A stretch of DNA of 64,000 nucleotides from Alphaproteobacteria bacterium (lineage in GTDB: Bacteria > Pseudomonadota > Alphaproteobacteria > SP197): NCBI GenBank assembly GCA_964291415.2, contig OZ219918.1, positions 32,001 to 96,000 of the forward strand, given 5' to 3'. Both the position numbers and the translations under genes were made by a program. The notes beneath the pieces were generated by a model. That model saw only the letters and a program-made list of their open reading frames with translations. It ran no database searches and was not told where the DNA came from. Every line of letters starts with the position of its first letter. The first letter of the stretch is position 1. Below are positions 14,248-56,150 of the stretch, in pieces.

Positions 14248-14375
14248 GGCGTTGCACCTTGATGCCGAATGCGGATCCTTGCGGACTGCCGACAGGCAGT
14301 TCGCACGCTATCTCAAGGTCAAAAGACCCCTGTCGTCCAGAGGCCAGCCGAAAAAAAGGGGATTATATACTGAGT

Positions 14376-14405
14376 TTGACAAGCGGCGGCATCTCGCCCT
14401 AGCCT
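14376..14405 (+). promoter_or_regulatory. Putative sigma70 promoter for the cargo lipoprotein, -35 inside the TIR
   Basis: TTGACA-18 bp-TAGCCT. Confidence 0.45.
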
Positions 14406-14578
14406 CCATCCTGCAACGTTACACGGACCCGCGAGTCGGGTCGCCCGCCGAATAGAACAGCCCTCAGACCGGCAAGGGGTAGCTCCCCATGCTTGGCGAA
14501 TAGGCGGGGCTTCACCAATCCGTGTGACGTTGCAACGGCCCGGCACCCGCTGGGCTGGCACACCGGAGGGGAGGCTCC

Positions 14579-15973
14579 ATGAATATCAGAAACACGTTAA
14601 CTTCATCGGTGATCGCCGCAGGAATGCTGTTTCTCGCCGCTTGTGGCGGCGGTGGCGGCAGTTCAAGTTCGACGGAGCAACCGACGGTCGGTTTGCCGCC
14701 CAGTGCATCGAACAACGAGTACCGGATACACCTCGGCATCCCAGCGTCTGATGCGAAGCGATCTCCCATCTATCGGACAGGCAACCTGCTTCGCGTCGGC
14801 GTAGATCAAGGGGCTGCACTGGAACGGTTGCCAAAGCTGACGATTCCCGGCTTCCCGGATGTCGAAGTGCGGTACGGCACAATCAGTGACGGCGCGGGCG
14901 GTTCGGCTCTACGCGACTATTTGTCATCGATCGAAGGATCCTATTCGGGCTTGAGCCGCCGGTTGCCAGGTTATGAAGTGCGCGTTATCGGCGCTTCAAC
15001 CGCGGCAGAACGTCGGCGCGTCCTCGCGGCCGTCCAGTTGGTGAACGCCGCCCTGCCGGAGAATGCCAAACTGAGCGTCGGAACGCCACTGCCGGGCTTC
15101 AGCCTCAAGGACACGGTGAATGCGGACGGGCGCTATTTCGGGGCCGGCAGCGAACTGCCGAACACGATTCATGTCGAGTTCACGCCGGAAAGCGAGTTCT
15201 ACGACAGCGACGCCGCTGGCACGTCGTGGGGCGAGTACATGCTTCTGTCACGCGGCGACTTCCCGGCATACACAGACGAGCGCAAGGCCGTGATCCTGAT
15301 AGCCCACGAATTCGTGCACTCGCTCGGGATCGGTGGGCATGTGCCGGAACACTTCGACACGATCATGGAGACTGGCAGCAGGGTCTATGACAATGCCCAG
15401 GGCATCCGACAGCCTGCGTCCTTGCTCTACCCGATCGACCGTGAGGCTGTGCGGGCACTCTACGGACCCTTGCGGAACAGCAACGATCCCAACGATCTCG
15501 GGCCATGGTCCAGCACATCGGAACACTTGTTCGTGGGCAATGAGCATGGCGCGTTCGGCGTCGCAAGCCGCAACGGTTATGCGGAGCCATGGGCGTATGG
15601 AACCACACCGCGAACCAATCTCGCCTCCAACCCGCAACTGTCCGGCACCGTGAACTGGTATGGCGCCCTGGTTGGCTTCACGTCGAACGCCCTACCCATG
15701 GCAGGCGACGCGGGAATCGCCGTTGATCTCACGAACATGGCGGGAACGGCGGCGTTCACGGATCTGACGATCATTTCAATAGACGGTGCGCCGGTTCCGC
15801 AGTGGGCTGACCGAGACCTCCACTACACCATCGCCGTCACCGGCAACACGTTCCGCGAAACCGGAGGCGATGACGGTAGGCTCACCGGCATCTTCGTGGG
15901 CCGTTACCATGAAGCGGCGGGCGGCACGCTGGAGCGGTCCGACTTGTCAGCGGCGTTCGGTGCGGTACGCTGA
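14579..15973 (+). CDS. Lipoprotein with zinc-metallopeptidase motif and C-terminal TbpB-like barrel
   Basis: Lipobox LAAC followed by GGGGGSSS; HEFVHSLGIGGH; C-terminus ...GRLTGIFVG..AAGGTLERSDLSAAFGAVR. Confidence 0.75.
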   Translation: MNIRNTLTSSVIAAGMLFLAACGGGGGSSSSTEQPTVGLPPSASNNEYRIHLGIPASDAKRSPIYRTGNLLRVGVDQGAALERLPKLTIPGFPDVEVRYGTISDGAGGSALRDYLSSIEGSYSGLSRRLPGYEVRVIGASTAAERRRVLAAVQLVNAALPENAKLSVGTPLPGFSLKDTVNADGRYFGAGSELPNTIHVEFTPESEFYDSDAAGTSWGEYMLLSRGDFPAYTDERKAVILIAHEFVHSLGIGGHVPEHFDTIMETGSRVYDNAQGIRQPASLLYPIDREAVRALYGPLRNSNDPNDLGPWSSTSEHLFVGNEHGAFGVASRNGYAEPWAYGTTPRTNLASNPQLSGTVNWYGALVGFTSNALPMAGDAGIAVDLTNMAGTAAFTDLTIISIDGAPVPQWADRDLHYTIAVTGNTFRETGGDDGRLTGIFVGRYHEAAGGTLERSDLSAAFGAVR

Positions 15974-15989
15974 CCACATGGAGACAGAC

Positions 15990-16139
15990 ATGACGGAACA
16001 GACGAAGGGCCCGGACTTGCTCACCTTGGCGATGCGTCGGGTTCAAGCCGAGACGGTCGAAAGACAGGGGCGGGAACCGGAATCCCCGCCCCATGCCGAA
16101 AACGCGTCAGCCGCGGATGCCGCTGACCGTGATGAATGA
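15990..16139 (+). CDS. Small hypothetical passenger protein
   Basis: GGAG RBS upstream; MTEQTKGPDLLTLAMRRVQAETVER. Confidence 0.4.
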   Translation: MTEQTKGPDLLTLAMRRVQAETVERQGREPESPPHAENASAADAADRDE

Positions 16140-16325
16140 ACCGTCCATGAGCCGCTGTTCGTTGACCAATCCGTGAAGCAGTCCCCGGCGGATCGCGCCT
16201 ATCACGGTGGTCTCGATCACGTGAGGACTGGCGTCGGGGATCTCGGTGGCGAGGTCATCAACGGTGTTGAATTCTCGGCCTCGGCAGGTCGTGAGAATGC
16301 GTTGTAGAAGGGATGTCTGAGCCAT
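16107..16325 (-). CDS. Small hypothetical passenger protein (possible winged helix)
   Basis: AAGGAGG RBS; 72 aa; downstream of the transposase on the same strand. Confidence 0.55.
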   Translation of the reverse strand: MAQTSLLQRILTTCRGREFNTVDDLATEIPDASPHVIETTVIGAIRRGLLHGLVNEQRLMDGSFITVSGIRG

Positions 16326-16460
16326 TCGGGCCTCCTTGAATCGGAGGCCGCATGACCCTATGCTGTAGAAATTGTTGCAGCATCCCGCACGGCCTCCAAA
16401 GCAGCGATGCGGGGAAACGGGCGCCCTTGCCGGGGCGCCTGTTTCGAATCTGGGATCAGG

Positions 16461-17444
16461 CTAACAGGAACGCGCCCCAGAAGACAATCCGTTGTCCTCG
16501 ATCAAGGCGCGATAGGCCAGATGCTTGCCGATCATGTGTGTGAACGCGGCTTCCATCTGGTCGATGGTGTCGGCGTCGCGCACATTGTGACGACCGGAAA
16601 ACTCGCTGATGTACCGCGCAAGGTGCTTCGGGCTCATCTTGTGATAGGTGCCCTGATAGCCGCGCTTGAGCATGGACCAGAAAGACTCGATGCCGTTGGT
16701 ATGGGCCATCCCACGCACATATTCGCCGGCGGAGTGGTTCACGGCTTCACGGTCGTAGTACGGATCGAGAATGTTGTAGGCACTGGCCTCATCGGTGAAC
16801 AGCTTGGCGCCGAACTCGGCCTTGGCGACCACGACATTCGAGACCGTCAGAGAGTCGGTCTTGTTGACGCGCTGAGCGGAGACGCGATTGGTGGCCCGAT
16901 CCTTCACGCCGACGATCGTCTCTTTGCCGACCGCGCCGCGTCCGCGCAGTTCCGTGCGCTTGCTCTTGGGCATGTTCTTGCGCTTACCGCCGATGAATGT
17001 CTCGTCGGCTTCGACCGGGCCGGTGAACGCGTCGGAGTCGCCATCTTCCCAAGCATCCCGGAGCCGGTGAAGCATGAACCATGCGGTCTTCTGCGTGACT
17101 TTGAGATCGCGGTGGAGCTTCATGCTGCTCACGCCCTTGAGGTTCGTCATGTAGATGTAGACGGCGAACACCCACTTGCGGAGCGGCAAGCGGGAACCCT
17201 GCAACATCGAGCCGGTGCGGACGGAGAAGTAGGAACGGCACGACTTGCACCAGTAGGGCATCGGCTTGGCGCTCGGCACTTCCCTGGTCTCGGTCGATCC
17301 GCAGTGACCGCAATGGCGTTCACCGTTCGGCCAGCGCGTATCCTCGAACCACCTCACCGCCGATGCCTCGTCGGGGAACATATCGGTCAACTCGATGATC
17401 GAGATACCTTCGCGGTGTGACTTGCCCGGTGCTTTCTGTGCCAT
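16461..17444 (-). CDS. IS1595-family transposase
   Basis: Zn ribbon CGHCG..CKSCR, HTH, VEADETFIGG, FTDE, HTNGIESFW. Confidence 0.95.
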   Translation of the reverse strand: MAQKAPGKSHREGISIIELTDMFPDEASAVRWFEDTRWPNGERHCGHCGSTETREVPSAKPMPYWCKSCRSYFSVRTGSMLQGSRLPLRKWVFAVYIYMTNLKGVSSMKLHRDLKVTQKTAWFMLHRLRDAWEDGDSDAFTGPVEADETFIGGKRKNMPKSKRTELRGRGAVGKETIVGVKDRATNRVSAQRVNKTDSLTVSNVVVAKAEFGAKLFTDEASAYNILDPYYDREAVNHSAGEYVRGMAHTNGIESFWSMLKRGYQGTYHKMSPKHLARYISEFSGRHNVRDADTIDQMEAAFTHMIGKHLAYRALIEDNGLSSGARSC

Positions 17445-17471
17445 GTCCCGACTCCGTGTCTAACTGACCGG

Positions 17472-17500
17472 AATATAGGGATTCTCGTTGCGCTTGTCAA
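17472..17500 (-). promoter_or_regulatory. Sigma70-type transposase promoter, -35 inside the TIR
   Basis: Minus strand TTGACA-17 bp-TATATT upstream of ATG 17444. Confidence 0.7.
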
Positions 17501-17612
17501 GTTCAGTATATAATCCCCCAAAGAAAAGGGAATTATACGCCTAACTAGCCAAAGCGCTTGACACCGGCTGGATAATCACCATTATACTAGCCATATCACA
17601 CGGAGTCGTGAG

Positions 17613-18578
17613 ATGGCGCAGAAAGGTCCGGGACGGTCGCACAGAGAAGGGATGACCGTTGTCCAGTTGCTCGGGATGTTCCCCGACGACGCAAGCGCCG
17701 AGGCGTGGTTCGAGGCGCAGAGATGGCCCGAGGGCCGGTTCTGCCCGGACTGCGGTTCGACCAACACCGTGTCGGTCACCAGCCGCAAGCCCATGCCCTA
17801 CCGTTGCCGCGACTGCCGCAATCACTTCTCCGTCCGCAAGGGCACGGTCATGCAGTCAAGCAAGCTCGGATTGCAGAAGTGGGCGATCGCGCTCTACCTG
17901 GCGACGACGGGCATCAAGGGCACGGCCAGCATGAAGGTCTACCGGGATCTCGGTATGCGTCAGGCGACGGCCTGGCACCTCATGCACCGCATCCGCGAAG
18001 CCTTTGACGACGGCGTGAACCTGCCGTTCCCCGGACCCGTCGAGATGGACGAGTCGCACTTCGGCGGCCGCGAGAAGAACAAGCACGGCAACAAAAAACT
18101 GCGCGCCGGCCGTGGTGCCGTCGGCAAGACCACTGTCGCCGGCGTCAAGGATCGCGGCTCCAGGCACGTCAGCGCCGCCGTGGTTCCGGCAACCAACAGG
18201 GAGACGCTTCAGGGCTTCGTGAAGGACCGTGCCGCTGACGGCGCGATGATCTACACCGACGAGCACGGCGCCTATCGGGGCATGGAGAACCACGAGTCGG
18301 TCAGTCACAGCACTGGCGAGTTTGTCCGCGGCATGGCGCACACGAACGGCATCGAGTCGTTCTGGAGCCTGTTGAAACGCGGCTATCACGGCACGTTCCA
18401 CAAGATCAGTGCCAAGCACCTCGACCGCTACGTCCGGGAGTTCGCCGGTCGCAACAACATCCGCGATCTCGACACGCTGGCACAGATGACCGCGCTGGCC
18501 CGTGGCATGGTCGGCAAGCGGCTTCGTTACAGCGACTTGATCGCGGACAATGGATTGCCTTCGGGAGCCCGAAGGTAG
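17613..18578 (+). CDS. IS1595-family transposase
   Basis: CPDCG..CRDCR, VEMDESHFGG, YTDE, HTNGIESFW. Confidence 0.95.
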   Translation: MAQKGPGRSHREGMTVVQLLGMFPDDASAEAWFEAQRWPEGRFCPDCGSTNTVSVTSRKPMPYRCRDCRNHFSVRKGTVMQSSKLGLQKWAIALYLATTGIKGTASMKVYRDLGMRQATAWHLMHRIREAFDDGVNLPFPGPVEMDESHFGGREKNKHGNKKLRAGRGAVGKTTVAGVKDRGSRHVSAAVVPATNRETLQGFVKDRAADGAMIYTDEHGAYRGMENHESVSHSTGEFVRGMAHTNGIESFWSLLKRGYHGTFHKISAKHLDRYVREFAGRNNIRDLDTLAQMTALARGMVGKRLRYSDLIADNGLPSGARR

Positions 18579-18696
18579 AAGTAACAGCGCTCCGACCAGC
18601 GGCAACTGGCGGAGCGCACAATCAGGCGAGAACCCTCTCGGCAACAACCGTAGCCGAGAGGGCTTTGGCATGTCTAGTTCCGAGTCAACCCACGAA

Positions 18697-18960
18697 TCAT
18701 GTCTCGCCGCTATCAGGGCCGAGATCCCCGACAGTCCCAGCGCGGATATGATCGCGAATATCATCGCACGCGATTGCAATCGCCTCCATCTCAGGGCTCG
18801 TGAAAGCAACGCCCGTCGGGTGCGTAGGGAGGCAATCGAGAATCTCGCACGCCACTTCCGGGTTTCGTTGCATGAGCTCTCCGAACATGAGAAGGACGAG
18901 AGCCTTCAACGCAGTGAGATCGGCTTGAAGCCCGGCGATTCCATCATCGTCTTGCGTCAT
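18697..18960 (-). CDS. Hypothetical passenger protein
   Basis: 87-aa ORF with GGAG upstream, following the 130-aa ORF; a competing + strand ORF exists. Confidence 0.45.
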   Translation of the reverse strand: MTQDDDGIAGLQADLTALKALVLLMFGELMQRNPEVACEILDCLPTHPTGVAFTSPEMEAIAIACDDIRDHIRAGTVGDLGPDSGET

Positions 18961-18981
18961 CTCTAGCGATCACTCCAACAG

Positions 18982-19374
18982 CTAGTAGAACGAGAACTCC
19001 GTGATCCTCCAGCGACGTTCTTCTCCGCCCTCCACGCATTGGGCGATGCCGTAGAAGTAGAGTCGGAGCGGGCCACCATACATGTTGAGGGTGTCAAGGT
19101 GCGATACGAGTTCGTATCTGTCGCCACTCTTGCGAACTGGTTTCTCGAAGGCGAAATCCGCCTCATCAGGAGCGTATAACTGGCCTTTGGCATGGCGCTC
19201 TATGATGACCTTGGCGGCCCATTTGGCGTCGTCCGCATCGCAACTTGCCCGGCTCTCGGCGGTCTTGGCACACATGGCAATGACACCGCCGATCGCGACA
19301 AAGATCGCCACCAAAACGATCACAATGACGGTTTGCTCGTTGGGACCTCTACCATTGGACATCTTGCACTCCAC
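18982..19374 (-). CDS. Membrane-anchored hypothetical passenger protein
   Basis: N-terminal TM segment (VIVIVLVAIFVAIGGVIAM) and small soluble domain. Confidence 0.65.
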   Translation of the reverse strand: MECKMSNGRGPNEQTVIVIVLVAIFVAIGGVIAMCAKTAESRASCDADDAKWAAKVIIERHAKGQLYAPDEADFAFEKPVRKSGDRYELVSHLDTLNMYGGPLRLYFYGIAQCVEGGEERRWRITEFSFY

Positions 19375-19673
19375 TCGCTGGCGAGCGGCGGGCTGGGCAA
19401 GACACCCTTGTCGTCAATCTCCTGTCGTGTGTTACCCCATGGTCATTGCCGCTCGGTTTGCGACCCGGCGGGATGCCGGGCCGGTCGCCAAACAACCATG
19501 GGTTCAAGGTTCCCGCTGATTTCCGCACGAGGCGGTGTTGTATTCACGGGCAGCCCGACACAGGGCGTCCCATGGTTGGTTTGGCGATGGTGAAAGCGTG
19601 GGTGTGCGGTTGGTGGGAGTCAACCACTATTAGATCAGTTGCCTAGCCGTAGGTCGTGCCATAGGATGGCGGC

Positions 19674-19841
19674 ATGACGGACAAGCCAGAACCTCGGCCG
19701 CGCGGTCGGCCACCGAAGCCCATGCCGAAGATCGACGCCACTCCGGAGCGAGCGGCCCAGGCGATCTTCTCGGCCGTCAAGAAGCCGGACCCGTCTGTCC
19801 GGATCCAGAAAGCCTACGAGCGGAAGAAGCCTAGTCAGTGA
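19674..19841 (+). CDS. 55-aa basic microprotein with AT-hook-like motif
   Basis: MTDKPEPRPRGRPPKPMPKIDATPERAAQAIFSAVKKPDPSVRIQKAYERKKPSQ; below the ORF-track cutoff; AGGA upstream. Confidence 0.55.
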   Translation: MTDKPEPRPRGRPPKPMPKIDATPERAAQAIFSAVKKPDPSVRIQKAYERKKPSQ

Positions 19842-20015
19842 GCAACACGCCCAAAGCACCCACACCTAGCCCATCCTCGGCAAACGCCAAGCAGTCACCG
19901 CCTGCGGCAGTCAATCCGCCGAAGCCTCCGCTGGTTATCGGCGGGCGAGTGGAGAAGCACGAAGCGCCATCTGGCTAGTTAGGCGTATAATTCCCAAAAA
20001 AAACGTCCGTTTGTG

Positions 20016-50689: not shown

Positions 50690-51906
50690 GGCGGCGCCTC
50701 TTCTTCCAGGTCTATCTCACGTTTCTTTCGATCATCGTCCTCTTTGGCGTGCTGACCGCGCTGGCATGGTGGTTCATCCCCGATGAACACCGGGCGGGCG
50801 ATTTCACCCGGGGCATGGGGTCCTATCTCCAGGAGACGCTGCCGCCTGTCGGAGCGCCACGCCACCAAATCGACGCCCATCTCGCCCGCCTGGCGGAGCA
50901 CTTCGACGTCAACCTCGTCCTGCTGGCTCCCGACGGTGCCATCCTGGGGCGTTCCGGCTCCGGGGAGGAGAGGCGGCACCGCCGGCACGCCATCATGCTT
51001 TCCGACGGACGGACCATGGAGGTCGTCTGGTCGAAGGATGGTGTCTCCGGAGCCGGATTCATCGTCGTTCCCGGGCTTCTCGCGCTGGCTGCCGCCATCG
51101 GCGCCTGGCCCCTGTCGCGCCGCCTCGCCGGCCGTCTCGAGCGGCTGAAGTCCAGGGTCGAGGCCCTGGGTTCAGGGGACCTACAGGCGCGTGTCAAGGT
51201 CGAGGGCAGGGACGAGATCGCCGCCCTCGCGACGAGCTTCAACCACGCCGCCGGGCGTATCGAGGACCTTGTGGAGGCCCAGCGCAACACCCTGGCGGCA
51301 GCATCCCATGAACTGCGATCTCCGCTGGCGAGGATCGCCATGGCCACAGGATTGCTCGCCGACACAGCGGATCCACAACTGGTCGCCAGGATCGAGCGCG
51401 ACATTGCGGAGCTCGATCAGCTGATTGACCAAATCCTGCTCGGCAGCCGCCTCGAGATCGAGGAGGGACCGGCCCGTCTCGACGAGATCGATCTTGGCGC
51501 ACTCGCCGCCGAGGAGGCGGCACGCTTCGAGGTCGCGTTCACTGGCGGCACGGCCGTGATCGAGGCCGAGGAACACCTGGTCCGTCACCTCGTGCGCAAC
51601 CTTCTCGGCAATGCTCGGCGTCATGCCGCGGGAAGTCCAGTGAGCGTCGAAGTCGCGGCTGACGGACCAGGGGTGCGCCTTCGTGTCGCCGACAGGGGCC
51701 CCGGGGTGAGCGAATCCATGAGGGAGAGCATCTTCGAGCCGTTCCGCTCCTTCGCCGCTGATGGCACGGGTGCCGGTCTCGGTCTCTATCTGGTGCGGCG
51801 CATCGCGAGACGCTACGGTGGCGACGCAGTCTGCCTCGAGAGGCCAGGCGGTGGCGCGCTCTTCGACGTCAGCCTGCCTGCCAAGGAAGAGGAGCAGGGC
51901 CCATGA
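50686..51906 (+). CDS. HAMP sensor histidine kinase
   Basis: SHELRSPLARI, NLLGNA, DRGPG, GAGLGL. Confidence 0.95.
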   Translation: MRRRLFFQVYLTFLSIIVLFGVLTALAWWFIPDEHRAGDFTRGMGSYLQETLPPVGAPRHQIDAHLARLAEHFDVNLVLLAPDGAILGRSGSGEERRHRRHAIMLSDGRTMEVVWSKDGVSGAGFIVVPGLLALAAAIGAWPLSRRLAGRLERLKSRVEALGSGDLQARVKVEGRDEIAALATSFNHAAGRIEDLVEAQRNTLAAASHELRSPLARIAMATGLLADTADPQLVARIERDIAELDQLIDQILLGSRLEIEEGPARLDEIDLGALAAEEAARFEVAFTGGTAVIEAEEHLVRHLVRNLLGNARRHAAGSPVSVEVAADGPGVRLRVADRGPGVSESMRESIFEPFRSFAADGTGAGLGLYLVRRIARRYGGDAVCLERPGGGALFDVSLPAKEEEQGP

Positions 51907-52533
51907 CAAGCACGCTCGATGCCGGCGGCTTTGACGTCTCTGCCGAGCACTCGACCACGCTGCCCTCGAGCTGGTACCGCGATCCCGCCATCTGGCGCCT
52001 CGAGCACGAGGCGATCTTCTACCGCAGCTGGTGGTATCTTGGACATGTCAGCGATCTCCCCCGACGCGGCGACTACCTCACCGGCAGGATTGCCGATCAG
52101 AATGTTCTCGTCATCAGGGGTCACGACGGGGTGTTGCGCGCCTTTCACAACGTGTGCAGCCACCGCGCTCATCCGCTGCTCGAGGGCTGCGGCAACACGG
52201 CCTTCATCACCTGCCCCTACCACCAGTGGACCTACGACGCGAACGGCCGCTTTCGCAACGGCCGGGGATGCGAGCCCCTGAGGGAGTGGACTGACGCGAA
52301 CGCCGACCTCAAGCCTGTGCGGCTCGAGGACTATGGCGGCTTTCTCTTCGTCAACCTCGATGCCGGTGCGATCCCCCTCATCGACCAGGCGGGGCGCTTT
52401 CTCGAGAACATGCGCCGCGCCTGTCCGCGGTTGCCGGACCTGGTGCGCGCCTGTCGCTGGGAAGTCGACGTGGCGGCGAACTGGAAGACGGTGATCGACA
52501 AGGGGATTACATACGTAACTTGACAGAATCGAC

Positions 52534-52562
52534 TTGACATCCAGTGGTGTTATCGGCATGAT
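52534..52562 (+). promoter_or_regulatory. Putative tnpB promoter
   Basis: TTGACA-17 bp-CATGAT, then GGAG RBS before ATG 52604. Confidence 0.55.
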
Positions 52563-53794
52563 TTCGCGAAGTAAATCAGTGTCCGCAACACCGGAGTCCC
52601 CGCATGTCGTCCTCTGTCACCTATCGACAGATCACCTTTCGCCTGCTGCCCGAGAAGCGCAGCACCTGGCGGCGGCTGGACGCCATGCTCGACGCGCAGC
52701 GCTGTCTCTACAACGCGGCGCTCGAGGAACGGATCGACTGCTACCGGAAGACCGGGAAGTCACTCACCTACTTCGATCAGGCAAAGTCCCTGACCTTGTG
52801 CCGGAAGGTTCTGCCGGACATGGCTGCGATGCCGGTGGCCATCCAGCGAGGGACGCTCAAGCGCCTCGATCATGCCTTCAAGGGGTTCTTCCAGCGGGTG
52901 AGCCAAGGTGGGGCCGGGTTCCCCCGGTTCCAGGGACGCCGGCATTTCAACAGCCTGTCCGTGGTCTCCGGCGTCAGGGTCGAGGGCAACCGTCTGCGCA
53001 TCCCCGGCCTGGGCTGGCTCACCATTCGCCGCCGGGGCGGCAATCCCTGGCCGCAGGGCACGCCGGTGAGCGCGGTTCTCAAGCGCGAGGAGGGACGCTG
53101 GAAGGCGGTGGTATGCCATGCGGTGTCTCTGCCGGAACCGGACGACAACGGCCATGCCGTCGGCGTGGACATGAATGCGGGCCAGGTGGCGACCTCGGAC
53201 GGGGAGATCCTGCGCCTGGAGAGGAGCCGGCGTCTTGAGGCCCGCGCCCGGCGCTATGCCAGGCAGCTGGCGCGGCAGCGCCGTGGCAGCAGACGCCGGG
53301 AGAAGACGCGGCGGCGTCTGTCGAAGACCACCCGGCGCATGGCGATGAAGCGCCATGACTGGCAGCACCATGTCAGCCGCCGCCTGGCGGATGCGGCCGG
53401 CACGGTGGTGGTCGAGGATCTGAAGGTCCGCAACATGACCCGCAGCGTCAGGGGCACGAAGGAGGAGCCGGGACGCCACGTGCGCTCCAAGGCGTCATCC
53501 TGGAGACGGGCTGGTCGTCGTTCCGGAGAATGCTGGACTACAAGGCGCGCCGCGTCATCGCGGTGAACCCGGCCTGGACCAGCCAGACCTGTGCAGCGTG
53601 CGGCGTCGCAAGCGCCCAATCACGCAGGACGCGGGATCTCTTTCAATGCGTGGCGTGCGGCCATGCGGATCATGCCGACCTTGTATGACCGGGTTTCATT
53701 CCCGTGATCACGTCATCCACAGCGGTTGGGATTGGGAAAGTGTGGACAACTGCGGTTGTGTAGGAGCTGTCCGGTCTATGGTTTCAGAGAGATT

Positions 53795-53989
53795 CCGCTC
53801 CCCTGCGCGAGGGCGCACAGGGGAGCGGGGTGCGGAGATCTCACGATCCCCGCGGAGGTCGGTCGGAGCCGACCTGGCTTTGTAGAGCCGTCATTGAGCT
53901 TGGTCGGCCGGCCTCCCTTGACGTCCCTCGCGTCCTGAATGGATGCCTGGGCTTGGACCGTATCATCACAAGGCGAGGAGCAAGGGACG
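53795..53989 (+). ncRNA. Predicted IS110 bridge RNA
   Basis: 5' hairpin 53795-53828; target loop with GCCGACCT (53868-53875) and CATTGAG (53892-53898); donor loop with ATGGATGC (53939-53946) and ACAAG (53968-53972); true 5' end may lie nearer 53700. Confidence 0.8.
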
Positions 53990-54915
53990 ATGGTTAAGGT
54001 AGTGGCAGGGATCGATGTCGGCAAGGCCAGCCTGGACATCTGCGCGGCGGGCAGACGCGTCGTTTTGCCAACGACGCCACGAGCTGGCGGGCGCTGGGTG
54101 CGTGGCTTCGGGGTCTCGAGGTGAGCCGGGTGGTGATGGAGGCGACGGGCCGCTATCACCGCAGGGTTCACCAGTGTCTTCATGACCGGGGCTTCGAGGT
54201 CATCGTGATCAACCCGTTGCGGGCCCGGCGCTTCGCCGAGGTGATGGGCCATCTGGCCAAGACCGACCGCGTCGACGCGTTGATGCTGGCCAGGCTGGGG
54301 ACGGCGCTGGGCGACGATCTTGAGCCGGTGGCCCCTCAGGAGGCCTTCCTCAACCGCTTGGAGGATCTCCTGGTGGTGCGCGCCAGGCATGTCGATACGC
54401 GGACCATGCTGAGGCAGGTGGCGGGTGAGGTGGACGGCGAGGGCGAGACCCTCACACGGGCCACGATCGCCGATCTCGACGAAAGGATTGCCGCACTGGA
54501 TGCGGCGATCGAAGCGCTGATCGCCGGTGATCCCGAACAGGCCGAGCGGTACAGCATCCTGATCTCGATCCCCGGCGTCGGTCCGGTGACCGCCGCGGCC
54601 CTTCTTTGCTGGATGCCCGAACTCGGCAGTCTCGAGGGTCGCCAGGCGGCAGCGTTGATCGGGGTGGCGCCGGTTGCCGACGACAGCGGCCAGCACCACG
54701 GCGCCCGGCACATTCGCGGCGGGCGCCGCAGGCCACGCGATCTCCTGTTCATGGCCGCGACTTCGGCGTCACGCTACAATCAGGATCTCGCCATCGTGTT
54801 CCAACGCCTCAAGGCCGCCGGCAAGGCCCACAAGGTGGCGATCGTTGCCGTGATGCGCAAACTCATCGCGCTGGCGAACGTCCTGTTGCGGGAACAGCGC
54901 TGCCGCCTGAAGCAC
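53990..54915 (+). pseudogene. IS110-family recombinase, frameshift near 54052
   Basis: GIDVGK, MEATG, KTDRVDA (DEDD), SIPGVG, DDSG, IRGGR, VAVMRKL; 3' end approximate. Confidence 0.9.
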
Positions 54916-54917
54916 CG

Positions 54918-55460
54918 GCACGCTCACCGGCGTGAAGGAGACTCCCTCATGGCCCTCACGCCTGCAGAGAAGCAGCGCCGTTATCGGGAACGGCTCAAGG
55001 CCGGCATGTCTCCCGTGCGCACCCGCAAGCTCCGTGACCGACGCTCGCGGGCCCAACGCTGGTGCGATGCGGTGGCCGAACTCGGCGCACTGCAGGAGCA
55101 CTATCGGGACTGTCTCGACAGGCTCCCGGACTCGCTGCACGACACAGCCTATGGAGAGCGCCTGCAGATCATCGTCGAGGCCGACATCGAGGCCCTCGAG
55201 GAGATCGAGCCTCCGCGCGGCTACGGACGGACACATGACACATGACACCTGGAGCCCCATTGTGCGCGGTAACGTTCTGACTGTGGTCACAATGCCCGGC
55301 ACCCTCATGCCGGGTAACGTTACCGCAATCAATGGCGAACACCCCACTCATGCTGCCGGGCGAACTCAACGTCTCCCTGGCCACGGGGCGTAGACACCGC
55401 AATGTCGGAACGTCAGACCGCATGGGGACAGACCAGGGAAACATCTTCACGCACGCTCAC
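54918..55460. repeat. 10-bp direct repeats GCACGCTCAC bounding an insert
   Basis: Copies at 54918-54927 and 55451-55460. Confidence 0.7.
54949..55245 (+). CDS. Small hypothetical protein (TPAEKQRRYRER motif)
   Basis: Own RBS GAAGGAG; basic N-terminal helix; ..EEIEPPRGYGR end. Confidence 0.7.
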   Translation: MALTPAEKQRRYRERLKAGMSPVRTRKLRDRRSRAQRWCDAVAELGALQEHYRDCLDRLPDSLHDTAYGERLQIIVEADIEALEEIEPPRGYGRTHDT

Positions 55461-56150
55461 AAAAACCTTGCACCGAAACATGGATGCTCAATGCAGCGGC
55501 GAACATTCTGGCCTCGGGGACTGGGGCATCTGCGCGGGGAGGTTGCCGGGTTGCCGGGCCTGTGAACCGCGAAATCGATCGGAGGATGGCAGCATGACGC
55601 TGTCAACTTCTCGATATAAGTCCCATCGACAACAATCACGAGTGCTACCACTGCGATGTCAATCACCGCTCGCTGATGGAACTCGTCGACTATGACGGCC
55701 AGGCCGCATGGTCCGATGACGGCATCACCTTCAGCCACAGGATCACCGCCAGGGATCTCGACAACACGGCCTATCGCCTCGAAGCGGCGGACGTTGAACA
55801 GCCCGAAGCCCTCTTCGGCTATATCTGGCCCACCGCAATCCCCCTCATGTACCCGGGCAGCCCCCATCTGGCGATGTTCCAGGTTCTGCCCACCGGCCCC
55901 GAAACCACCCGCGAGAGATGGGACTTCTACTTCACGTCCCGCGAGCCCTCCGAACTCGAGAGGCGGTTCATGGACTACATCCGCACCGTCCTCGTGGTCG
56001 AGGATGTCCGGCTCTGCGAGAACGTCCAGCAGGGTCTCCACTCGCTCGGCTACCACCAGGGACGGTTCGTCGTCGACAGGGATCACCCCGAATTCAGTGA
56101 GCACCACGTGCACTTCTTCCAGTCCATGGTGCGCGACTCGCTGAAGTCCG

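Follow-up and report, generated by a model that had tools for sequence, protein, structure and literature searches.

A tnpB gene between IS1595-type transposon ends: a family of putative non-autonomous cassettes in bacterial genomes

The window analyzed here is the whole 64,000-nucleotide stretch G000:C2:32001-96000 of an Alphaproteobacteria bacterium (assembly GCA_964291415.2, contig OZ219918.1, positions 32,001 to 96,000 of the forward strand), and it contains, at 52502-55624, a transposon-like element whose only gene of its own is tnpB. Cas12 descends from TnpB, which is also a compact genome editor; to our knowledge, how TnpB works has been established only for IS200/IS605 and IS607 elements, whose excision leaves no scar. 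The copy in the window instead lies between inverted repeats of IS1595 type and 8-bp target duplications, and a second insertion sequence, of the IS110 family, is nested within it. The explanation we favor, and consider very probable, is that it belongs to a family of non-autonomous tnpB cassettes moved by an IS1595 transposase encoded elsewhere. The relevant features are listed below in window coordinates.

51903-52501, plus strand: host Rieske oxygenase alpha-subunit gene, 5′ part (the gene resumes after 55625)
52493, plus strand: conserved G at position −1, directly 5′ of the left duplication copy (G in 35/36 insertions and in the empty sites of 10/11 relatives)
52494-52501, no strand: left copy of the 8-bp duplication ATCGACAA, from the sequence and from empty sites
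52502-52526, plus strand: left terminal inverted repeat, IS1595 type, GGGGATTACATACGTAACTTGACAG (21/25 against the IS1595 end at 17494-17518)
52604-53493, plus strand: 5′ part of tnpB in its original frame, up to a 13-bp deletion
53494-53681, plus strand: middle of tnpB in a shifted frame (zinc-finger/TNB region), ended by the IS110 element inside the RuvC-III motif
53682-55488, plus strand: nested IS110-family insertion sequence, 1807 bp, with transposase frames at 53939-54124 and 54121-55245
55489-55597, plus strand: 3′ part of tnpB through the stop codon at 55595-55597
55511-55615, plus strand: omega-RNA-like region with four predicted helices; the second major clade has a comparable one
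55600-55624, minus strand: right terminal inverted repeat (reverse complement GGGACTTATATCGAGAAGTTGACAG)
55625-55632, no strand: right copy of the duplication ATCGACAA, proposed to supply the first 8 nt of the guide
14358-17518, minus strand: IS1595-family element A, 3161 bp, with a transposase gene (16461-17444) and a passenger open reading frame (ORF); candidate mobilizer in trans

The two copies of ATCGACAA bracket an element of 3123 bp, whose left end and reverse-complemented right end agree at 17 of 25 positions. The stop codon is TGA, and the 25-nt right repeat begins 2 nt after it. Taken in pieces, the window tnpB matches Pfam OrfB_IS605 (E 4.5e-14) and Cas12f1-like_TNB (E 3.1e-13), and the nested element matches DEDD_Tnp_IS110 and Transposase_20. 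We could fix the boundaries of the nested element because both halves of the window copy are contiguous in four intact copies found elsewhere in the genome; its removal leaves 1316 bp, compared with 1329 bp in the intact copies, because the window copy has lost 13 bp after 53493, a deletion that shifts the tnpB frame. It differs from the intact copy that we call c2a (coordinates below) at 80 positions (∼6% divergence). With a frameshifting deletion, this degree of divergence and an IS110 element splitting the RuvC-III motif, the window copy reads as dead. An initial annotation of this DNA had described an element of about 1.3 kb once the inner IS110 was taken out, its tnpB a pseudogene, with a stop codon 2 bp before the right repeat and no transposase inside; each of these points was borne out, the only internal transposase being that of the nested IS110. 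It had also listed a promoter between the left end and tnpB. Two TTGACA hexamers are visible in the left end, but a consensus scan returned no promoter-like site in the intact copy, and promoter and terminator scans were both empty. The nested IS110 is itself the only full copy in the genome; parts of it recur as a 90% identical stretch of 1.2 kb (C1:121838-123053) and as 157 nt (C4:639587-639741). The IS110 transposase is spread over two overlapping frames and may itself be broken.

The insertion interrupts the alpha-subunit gene of a Rieske ring-hydroxylating oxygenase. We searched 40 relatives for the empty site and fetched the 11 best orthologous loci, all from same-genus genomes. In all 11, the gene is uninterrupted and carries a single ATCGACAA, in the context ...GACGGTG ATCGACAA CAATCACGAG..., and we therefore regard the exact 8-bp repeat noted in the initial annotation as the product of a true insertion with target duplication and not as a chance repeat.

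The genome contains four more full-length copies, each 1329 bp long and each with an open tnpB of 399 amino acids.

C2:285595-286923 (c2a): duplication AAAAAATG
C1:540307-541635 (c1): duplication CTTCCTTT
C2:1200166-1201494, minus strand (c2b): duplication AATCGGAG if the end is read as GGG
C4:1339554-1340882 (c4): duplication in which only 5/8 positions agree

Together with the window copy, four of the five copies in this genome have clean 8-bp duplications. A 399-bp fragment of the cassette lies at C4:587603-588001. As a separate matter, a further tnpB homologue of another subfamily, 49% identical to the L027-type protein, lies at C1:387856-389013.

We then surveyed homologues in other genomes, scanning one genome per species; 68 loci encode relatives, and ends were sought at full-length matches. 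This gave 32 elements with both ends defined, 1220-1503 bp long, with one ORF and a start of GGGNNTTATA or a near variant. Among all 37 elements (five from this genome and 32 from others), the duplications are perfect in 24, match at 7/8 positions in four and are degraded in nine. The hosts are metagenome-assembled genomes labeled Alphaproteobacteria, Paracoccaceae, Gammaproteobacteria, Steroidobacteraceae, Thermodesulfobacteriota, Dehalococcoidia, and Spirochaetia, so that the cassettes span at least four phyla, and one Paracoccaceae genome holds at least six complete cassettes. TnpB identity of the cassette homologues to the copy in the window genome ranges from 93% down to ∼28%. The placement of the gene is constant: of 28 measured elements, 27 have 5-56 nt between the end of the ORF and the right end, and in the remaining one, a broken copy, the frame continues past that end. 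In the relatives, the two inverted repeats match each other at as many as 24-25 of 25 positions, and they vary by sub-clade beyond the first ten bases (words GTGACCAT, CTAACCAT, TTGACAG, and ACTCCC), which is what separate coevolution with different transposases would give. As a control, we scanned 80 generic TnpB loci from viral contigs with no requirement for GG/CC ends; four short loci were skipped, and one candidate was obtained among the other 76, with the match off-centre in five. These elements very likely constitute an old and widespread family of non-autonomous tnpB cassettes, ∼1.2-1.5 kb long, with IS1595-type ends and an omega-RNA-like scaffold, and the family looks active.

The most distant TnpB homologues have no IS1595-type ends. 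In Nonomuraea (four copies, 39-40% identity) and Kribbella (two copies, 34-35%), the shared sequence runs only from an asymmetric left boundary to a right boundary ending in GTCA(A), with hairpin-like ends and no target duplication, which looks like the IS200/IS605 pattern, and GGGNNTTATA ends were not found at four single loci (Ferrovum, Marinobacter, Tundrisphaera, and one Paracoccaceae). On a quick, unrooted maximum-likelihood tree of 39 proteins drawn from the pattern search (31 with ends and eight without; the broken-frame L037 and L038 and partial loci were left out), the end label changes three times, against a mean of 7.4 when labels are shuffled, and five of the eight end-less rows group on one side. 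This distribution suggests a single old capture with later losses as the likely history. The initial annotation had proposed comparing a TnpB tree with the ends and looking for co-occurrence with IS1595; the ends do cluster on the tree, whereas co-occurrence with the transposase within the genus, given below, did not discriminate.

What could move such cassettes? Transposase genes are absent from the interior of all 37, and in particular there is no internal DDE_Tnp_IS1595 transposase, so that the element can only be a non-autonomous derivative; the fetched flanks also contain none, except for one unrelated neighbor in L033. By tblastn, the window genome has only two IS1595 transposase genes, both within the window, at 16461-17444 (minus strand) and 17613-18578. 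The matches are to Pfam DDE_Tnp_IS1595 (E 1e-36) and NCBIfam transpos_IS1595 (187 bits). Element A, which carries the first of these genes, has ends reading GGGGATTATATACTGA(G/A)(T/C)TTGACAA, and both IS1595 elements in the window begin GGGRATTAT. The left ends of the cassettes match the transposase-side end of element A at 20-23 of 25 positions and the right ends at 15-18 of 25; for the window copy the left-end figure is 21/25, equivalent to the 21/24 given in the initial annotation. Such ends we assign provisionally to the ISNwi1 group of ISfinder. A search for the Y1 transposase of IS200/IS605 elements (PF01797) gave no match in this genome, which is 100% complete by marker genes; the same search matched 6/14 reference genomes used as a control.

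The comparison extends to elements outside this genome. We took the 80 nearest metagenomic relatives of transposase A, none of whose loci contains tnpB, and could define ends in 14; these autonomous elements have AT-rich 8-bp duplications like those of the cassettes, the duplication length having been fixed by the scan. IS1595 transposases were present in all five other cassette-bearing genomes tested, and one of the five has, in front of an IS1595 transposase gene, an end that agrees with its own cassette at 22/25 positions. The initial annotation had read the window copy as a non-autonomous TnpB element mobilized in trans by an IS1595 transposase; the ends, the duplications and the lack of an internal transposase agree with that, and mobilization in trans is the only mechanism that fits ends and duplications together, a step that we consider well supported although we infer it.

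Several further observations concern element A and its neighbors. Its cargo is a 464-amino acid ORF (14579-15973) with a lipoprotein-like N terminus and an HEFVH motif, for which there was no NCBIfam match. We found no second copy of element A in 33 genomes of the family, the matches in three other genomes being cassette-type ends or fragments, and automatic end-finding at 28 IS1595 loci from five genomes produced one clean element only. The second IS1595 element of the window (17528-19995) encodes a transposase 55% identical to the first and has different repeats (GGGAATTATACGCCTAACTAGCCA); the two elements are 9 nt apart in a poly-A target, which prevents a clean reading of either duplication.

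The intact copies encode what is most likely an active RNA-guided nuclease, because the RuvC D-E-D triad and the zinc finger are retained. The intact protein scores 206.3 bits against NCBIfam NF040570 guided_TnpB (cut-off 100; residues 19-372), and its residues 11-374 align with the ISDra2 TnpB structure (8bf8/8exa; E 5e-32). Eight diverse members all have the RuvC residues D189, E271, and D363 and the zinc-finger cysteines C334, C337, C353, and C356.

The 3′ end of the cassette is predicted to form a conserved RNA structure. For 17 cassettes, alphaproteobacterial and related, the final 200 nt were aligned together with 20 nt of flank, and the consensus fold has four helices in the last ∼115 nt. 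Counted on the alignment from which the fold was predicted, the 23 pairs of the model are formed in 94.6% of cells, a figure that falls to 27-41% if the partners are shifted by 1-3 columns; 11 of the 23 show compensatory changes, and the covariation score of 0.419 compares with 0.214 in shuffles, none of 500 shuffles reaching the observed value. In the last helix, the sequence coding for the C terminus of the protein pairs with the inner right repeat, after which 9 nt (ATAAGTCCC) lead to the end of the element. A separate alignment of 12 cassettes from the second major clade gave compensatory changes at 10 of 28 pairs, with the right repeat again forming part of the last helix. The scaffold region of the window copy is intact, just downstream of the IS110. 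Six cassette loci searched against Rfam gave no match (E up to 1). Contigs with cassettes occur in three sponge metatranscriptome libraries from three studies, in which DNA is possibly present. In its position and its modeled fold, the structured 3′ region looks like an omega RNA.

Part of this scaffold also occurs apart from tnpB. The window genome has a 174-bp family of miniature inverted-repeat transposable elements (MITEs) with the left-type and right-type IS1595 ends of the cassette, all copies lying outside the window.

C4:1169275-1169572 (L262) and C2:344481-344778: 298-bp copies
C4:883416-883589 (L261) and C4:560976-561149: shorter forms

The two 298-bp copies carry a 124-nt insert that corresponds to the scaffold core (helices 1-3; a 69-nt match, 90-96% identical to cassettes) and is flanked by a 15-nt direct repeat, GC(A/G)TTGCACTTGAGC. 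Contigs of run X1, an RNA library, carry the exact junctions of this insert. The insert may be an orphan guide-RNA module, or it may have arisen by recombination.

The target sites have an asymmetry of their own. We read them in the orientation of tnpB and numbered the base directly 5′ of the left duplication copy as −1. In a first set, G stood at −1 in 27 of 28 sites with good duplications and in 9/9 degraded sites. The final set of 36 sites (duplication of at least 7/8) consists of those 28, one re-examined locus and seven new sites from the genus; the seven came from 18 loci, of which ten had ends that were poor or missing and one repeated the L015 insertion and was left out. G(−1) is found in 35 of the 36 (p = 4e-18; background G 0.29), and G(−4) in 22 (p = 6e-5). 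Neither mirror position is significant (C(+9) 15/36, p = 0.08; C(+12) 12/36, p = 0.36). Within the duplication, position 2 is A/T in 36/36 and position 7 in 33/36; this preference is probably the transposase's, because it is symmetric and common to the autonomous elements. The autonomous IS1595 relatives have G(−1) in 1/14 cases, or in 5/14 when read in the other orientation. For the window copy, 10/11 relatives have this G in their empty sites, so that it belongs to the target. We had entertained the possibility that the G is added during insertion, and we rejected it on account of these empty sites and of one alignable relative for c2a. The idea had come from a G-less sequence: in run X4, whose library type is not recorded, one contig joins the two c2a flanks as an empty site that reads GTG C AAAAAATG, compared with GTGCG AAAAAATG. 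It is a single contig with a depth of 11.8, and the nearest alignable relative has the G; strain variation, misassembly, or an allele that escapes targeting could explain it.

These data allow a mechanism to be proposed. An IS1595-family DDE transposase encoded elsewhere, for which element A (14358-17518) is the likeliest source in this genome, would bind the ends and insert the cassette with an 8-bp staggered cut, and this would account for the duplication. The omega RNA would read out of the right end, with a guide that starts with the duplicated 8 bp and runs into the flank. G(−1) and the weaker G(−4) would then sit where the target-adjacent motif (TAM) of the unoccupied allele should be, and each copy could cut its own empty site and be copied in by repair. 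The occupied site would be spared, CCC preceding the right-hand target and the left-hand target losing its match after 8 nt. We advance the step involving TAM, guide and homing only tentatively. In its full form, the proposal is that a TnpB clade switched carriers from IS200/IS605 to an IS1595 DDE element, with a guide drawn from the duplicated bases, a TAM of G or GNNG, and oriented integration; this is possible, although we incline slightly to doubt it. If it holds, it would be a case of RNA-guided homing serving a bacterial cut-and-paste DDE transposon, so far documented for the eukaryotic Fanzors.

Other origins for the cassette and for the G have to be weighed against this. That an IS200/IS605 tnpB landed once inside an IS1595 MITE of this genome might seem to follow from the distant Nonomuraea and Kribbella homologues (34-40% identity), with their IS200/IS605-like ends and no duplication; however, the same architecture recurs in 37 elements from at least four phyla with TnpB identities down to ∼30%, the inverted repeats differ by sub-clade, and the distance between ORF end and right end is 5-56 nt throughout, bar the one broken read-through copy. 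The initial annotation had pointed to homologues with IS200/605-type ends and no duplication as the finding that would favor such an accident, and homologues within the clade instead share GGGNNTTATA-type ends. We consider a one-off event very improbable. We give just as little credence to the idea that an IS200/IS605 Y1 transposase, or TnpB on its own, moves the cassette, with repeats and duplications incidental. The protein is indeed a canonical ISDra2-like TnpB, but the complete genome has no Y1_Tnp match where the control search found 6/14, the available part of a 2026 review (PMC13565253) describes IS200/IS605 elements as lacking inverted repeats and making no duplications, and 24/37 of our elements have perfect 8-bp duplications. 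Mobilization in trans by an IS1595 transposase is our preferred account of the architecture; there are observations that weigh against it and against the homing step. We found no closely matching autonomous IS1595 element in the other four cassette-bearing genomes, only cassettes or solo ends. Within the genus, an IS1595 transposase is present in 8/10 genomes with the cassette and 10/13 without, a test that does not discriminate because IS1595 is too common there. The complete, single-contig genome G018 of the same genus has cassettes and no IS1595 transposase match (these are three cassettes of a 67%-identity subfamily, L231, L239, and L244, which we call stranded there). The RNA structure was predicted on the same alignments on which its pairs were counted; the RNA-library data are contigs, uninformative on transcription, strand, and RNA ends; a TAM of one base or of GNNG would be unusually short; and transposition, the RNA end, and cleavage are all predictions from sequence.

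The reading of G(−1) is more evenly contested. With the same architecture, the G could be an orientation-specific target preference of the cognate IS1595 transposase, unrelated to TnpB, the TAM being different or elsewhere, and we consider this oriented preference about as likely as the TAM. Conservation in 35/36 sites is easier to achieve at integration than by later selection. Moreover, three of the tnpB-less MITE copies have ends that can be told apart (GGGGATT, left-type; GGGACTT, right-type), and all three have G(−1) on the left-type side, a result that also counts against the TAM and points to an oriented transposase preference; we found no more copies in 22 other genomes of the genus. 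Set against this are the autonomous IS1595 relatives, with their 1/14, or 5/14 in the other orientation, although these 14 controls are only 36-46% identical to transposase A, which limits what they say in favor of a TAM. G(−1) also holds in sub-clades that have identical outer repeats on both sides, while the repeats differ between clades, so that several transposases would need the same asymmetry, and the motif starts exactly at the duplication border, where a TAM is expected. G(−1) is thus either a TAM or an oriented transposase preference, and both may hold; the two are compatible because, in the portion of PMC13565253 that deals with IS200/IS605, the TAM equals the transposase's target motif.

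Associations between TnpB and DDE transposons have been described before. The main text of Altae-Tran et al. (2023, PNAS; PMC10691335) reports six DDE-transposase-associated TnpB branches (DDE-1 to DDE-6), all with inverted terminal repeats and with tnpB within 250 bp of a transposon end, and takes solo TnpBs with nearly identical ends as having been moved in trans; in this respect, the novelty implied in the initial annotation was overstated. That main text names only IS630 (branch DDE-6), and the available part of the 2026 review lists ISL2, IS630, and IS1031 and calls TnpB-DDE associations rare and unexplained. IS1595 is named in neither of these texts; DDE-1 to DDE-5 are defined in the supplements of PMC10691335, and one of them may be the cassette family. 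Among full-text literature matches, we did not find a link between TnpB and IS1595 in the titles and abstract beginnings, and one paper lists IS1595 in a gene table only. Searches on the end group and on TnpB, TAM, and DDE returned nothing on the cassette family, a prior IS1595 branch in those supplements being possible.

Whatever its place among those branches, the family provides a tractable bacterial case for asking how an RNA-guided nuclease may help a DDE transposon with variable duplications: recent insertions are numerous, a candidate transposase is defined, and the scaffold in the transposon end is compact. The oriented one-base signal yields a concrete prediction of TAM and guide position, and if the TAM were only G or GNNG, targeting would be unusually relaxed for such nucleases. 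Two features appear to go beyond the published descriptions that we found, namely the oriented G(−1)/G(−4) signal and the predicted building of the scaffold into the right repeat.

The family shares features with four known systems and differs from each. The IS1595 family is said, by Siguier, Gagnevin and Chandler in 2009 and in ISfinder, to include passenger-carrying and transposase-less derivatives. The cassettes resemble that family in ends beginning GGGNNTTAT, in AT-rich 8-bp duplications, and in a cargo gene that replaces the transposase or lies beside it, as in the passenger-carrying derivatives, of which element A with its passenger ORF is an example. They differ in that the cargo is an RNA-guided nuclease whose guide-RNA scaffold is predicted to be built into the right end. 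With the IS1341-type members of IS200/IS605 they have in common a single tnpB ORF, a 3′ omega-RNA-like structure, the RuvC triad, and a full-length match to ISDra2 TnpB. IS200/IS605 elements, however, have hairpin ends with no inverted repeats, make no duplication, and insert 3′ of a 4-5-nt motif that equals the TAM, whereas the cassettes have 25-nt inverted repeats, 8-bp duplications, and only one or two conserved upstream bases. Like the DDE branches in the main text of Altae-Tran et al., tnpB lies inside an inverted-repeat transposon with its 3′ end near the transposon end (here 5-56 bp), and like the solo TnpBs of that text, the ends resemble those of transposase-bearing elements, implying mobilization in trans; unlike the DDE branches, no form with both transposase and tnpB was found here, and we found no mention in PMC10691335 of an oriented G beside the duplication. 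The fourth system is that of the Fanzor1 and Fanzor2* elements in eukaryotic cut-and-paste transposons, which, according to Yoon et al. (2023, NAR; PMC10711439), are likewise non-autonomous, with inverted repeats and duplications and the nuclease only; there, too, the guide-RNA scaffold is predicted to include the right repeat, with the RNA running past the transposon end. Unlike the Fanzor elements, the cassettes are prokaryotic, and their 8-bp duplication is variable and therefore, in contrast to the short fixed duplications of the eukaryotic elements, not part of a fixed scaffold or TAM.

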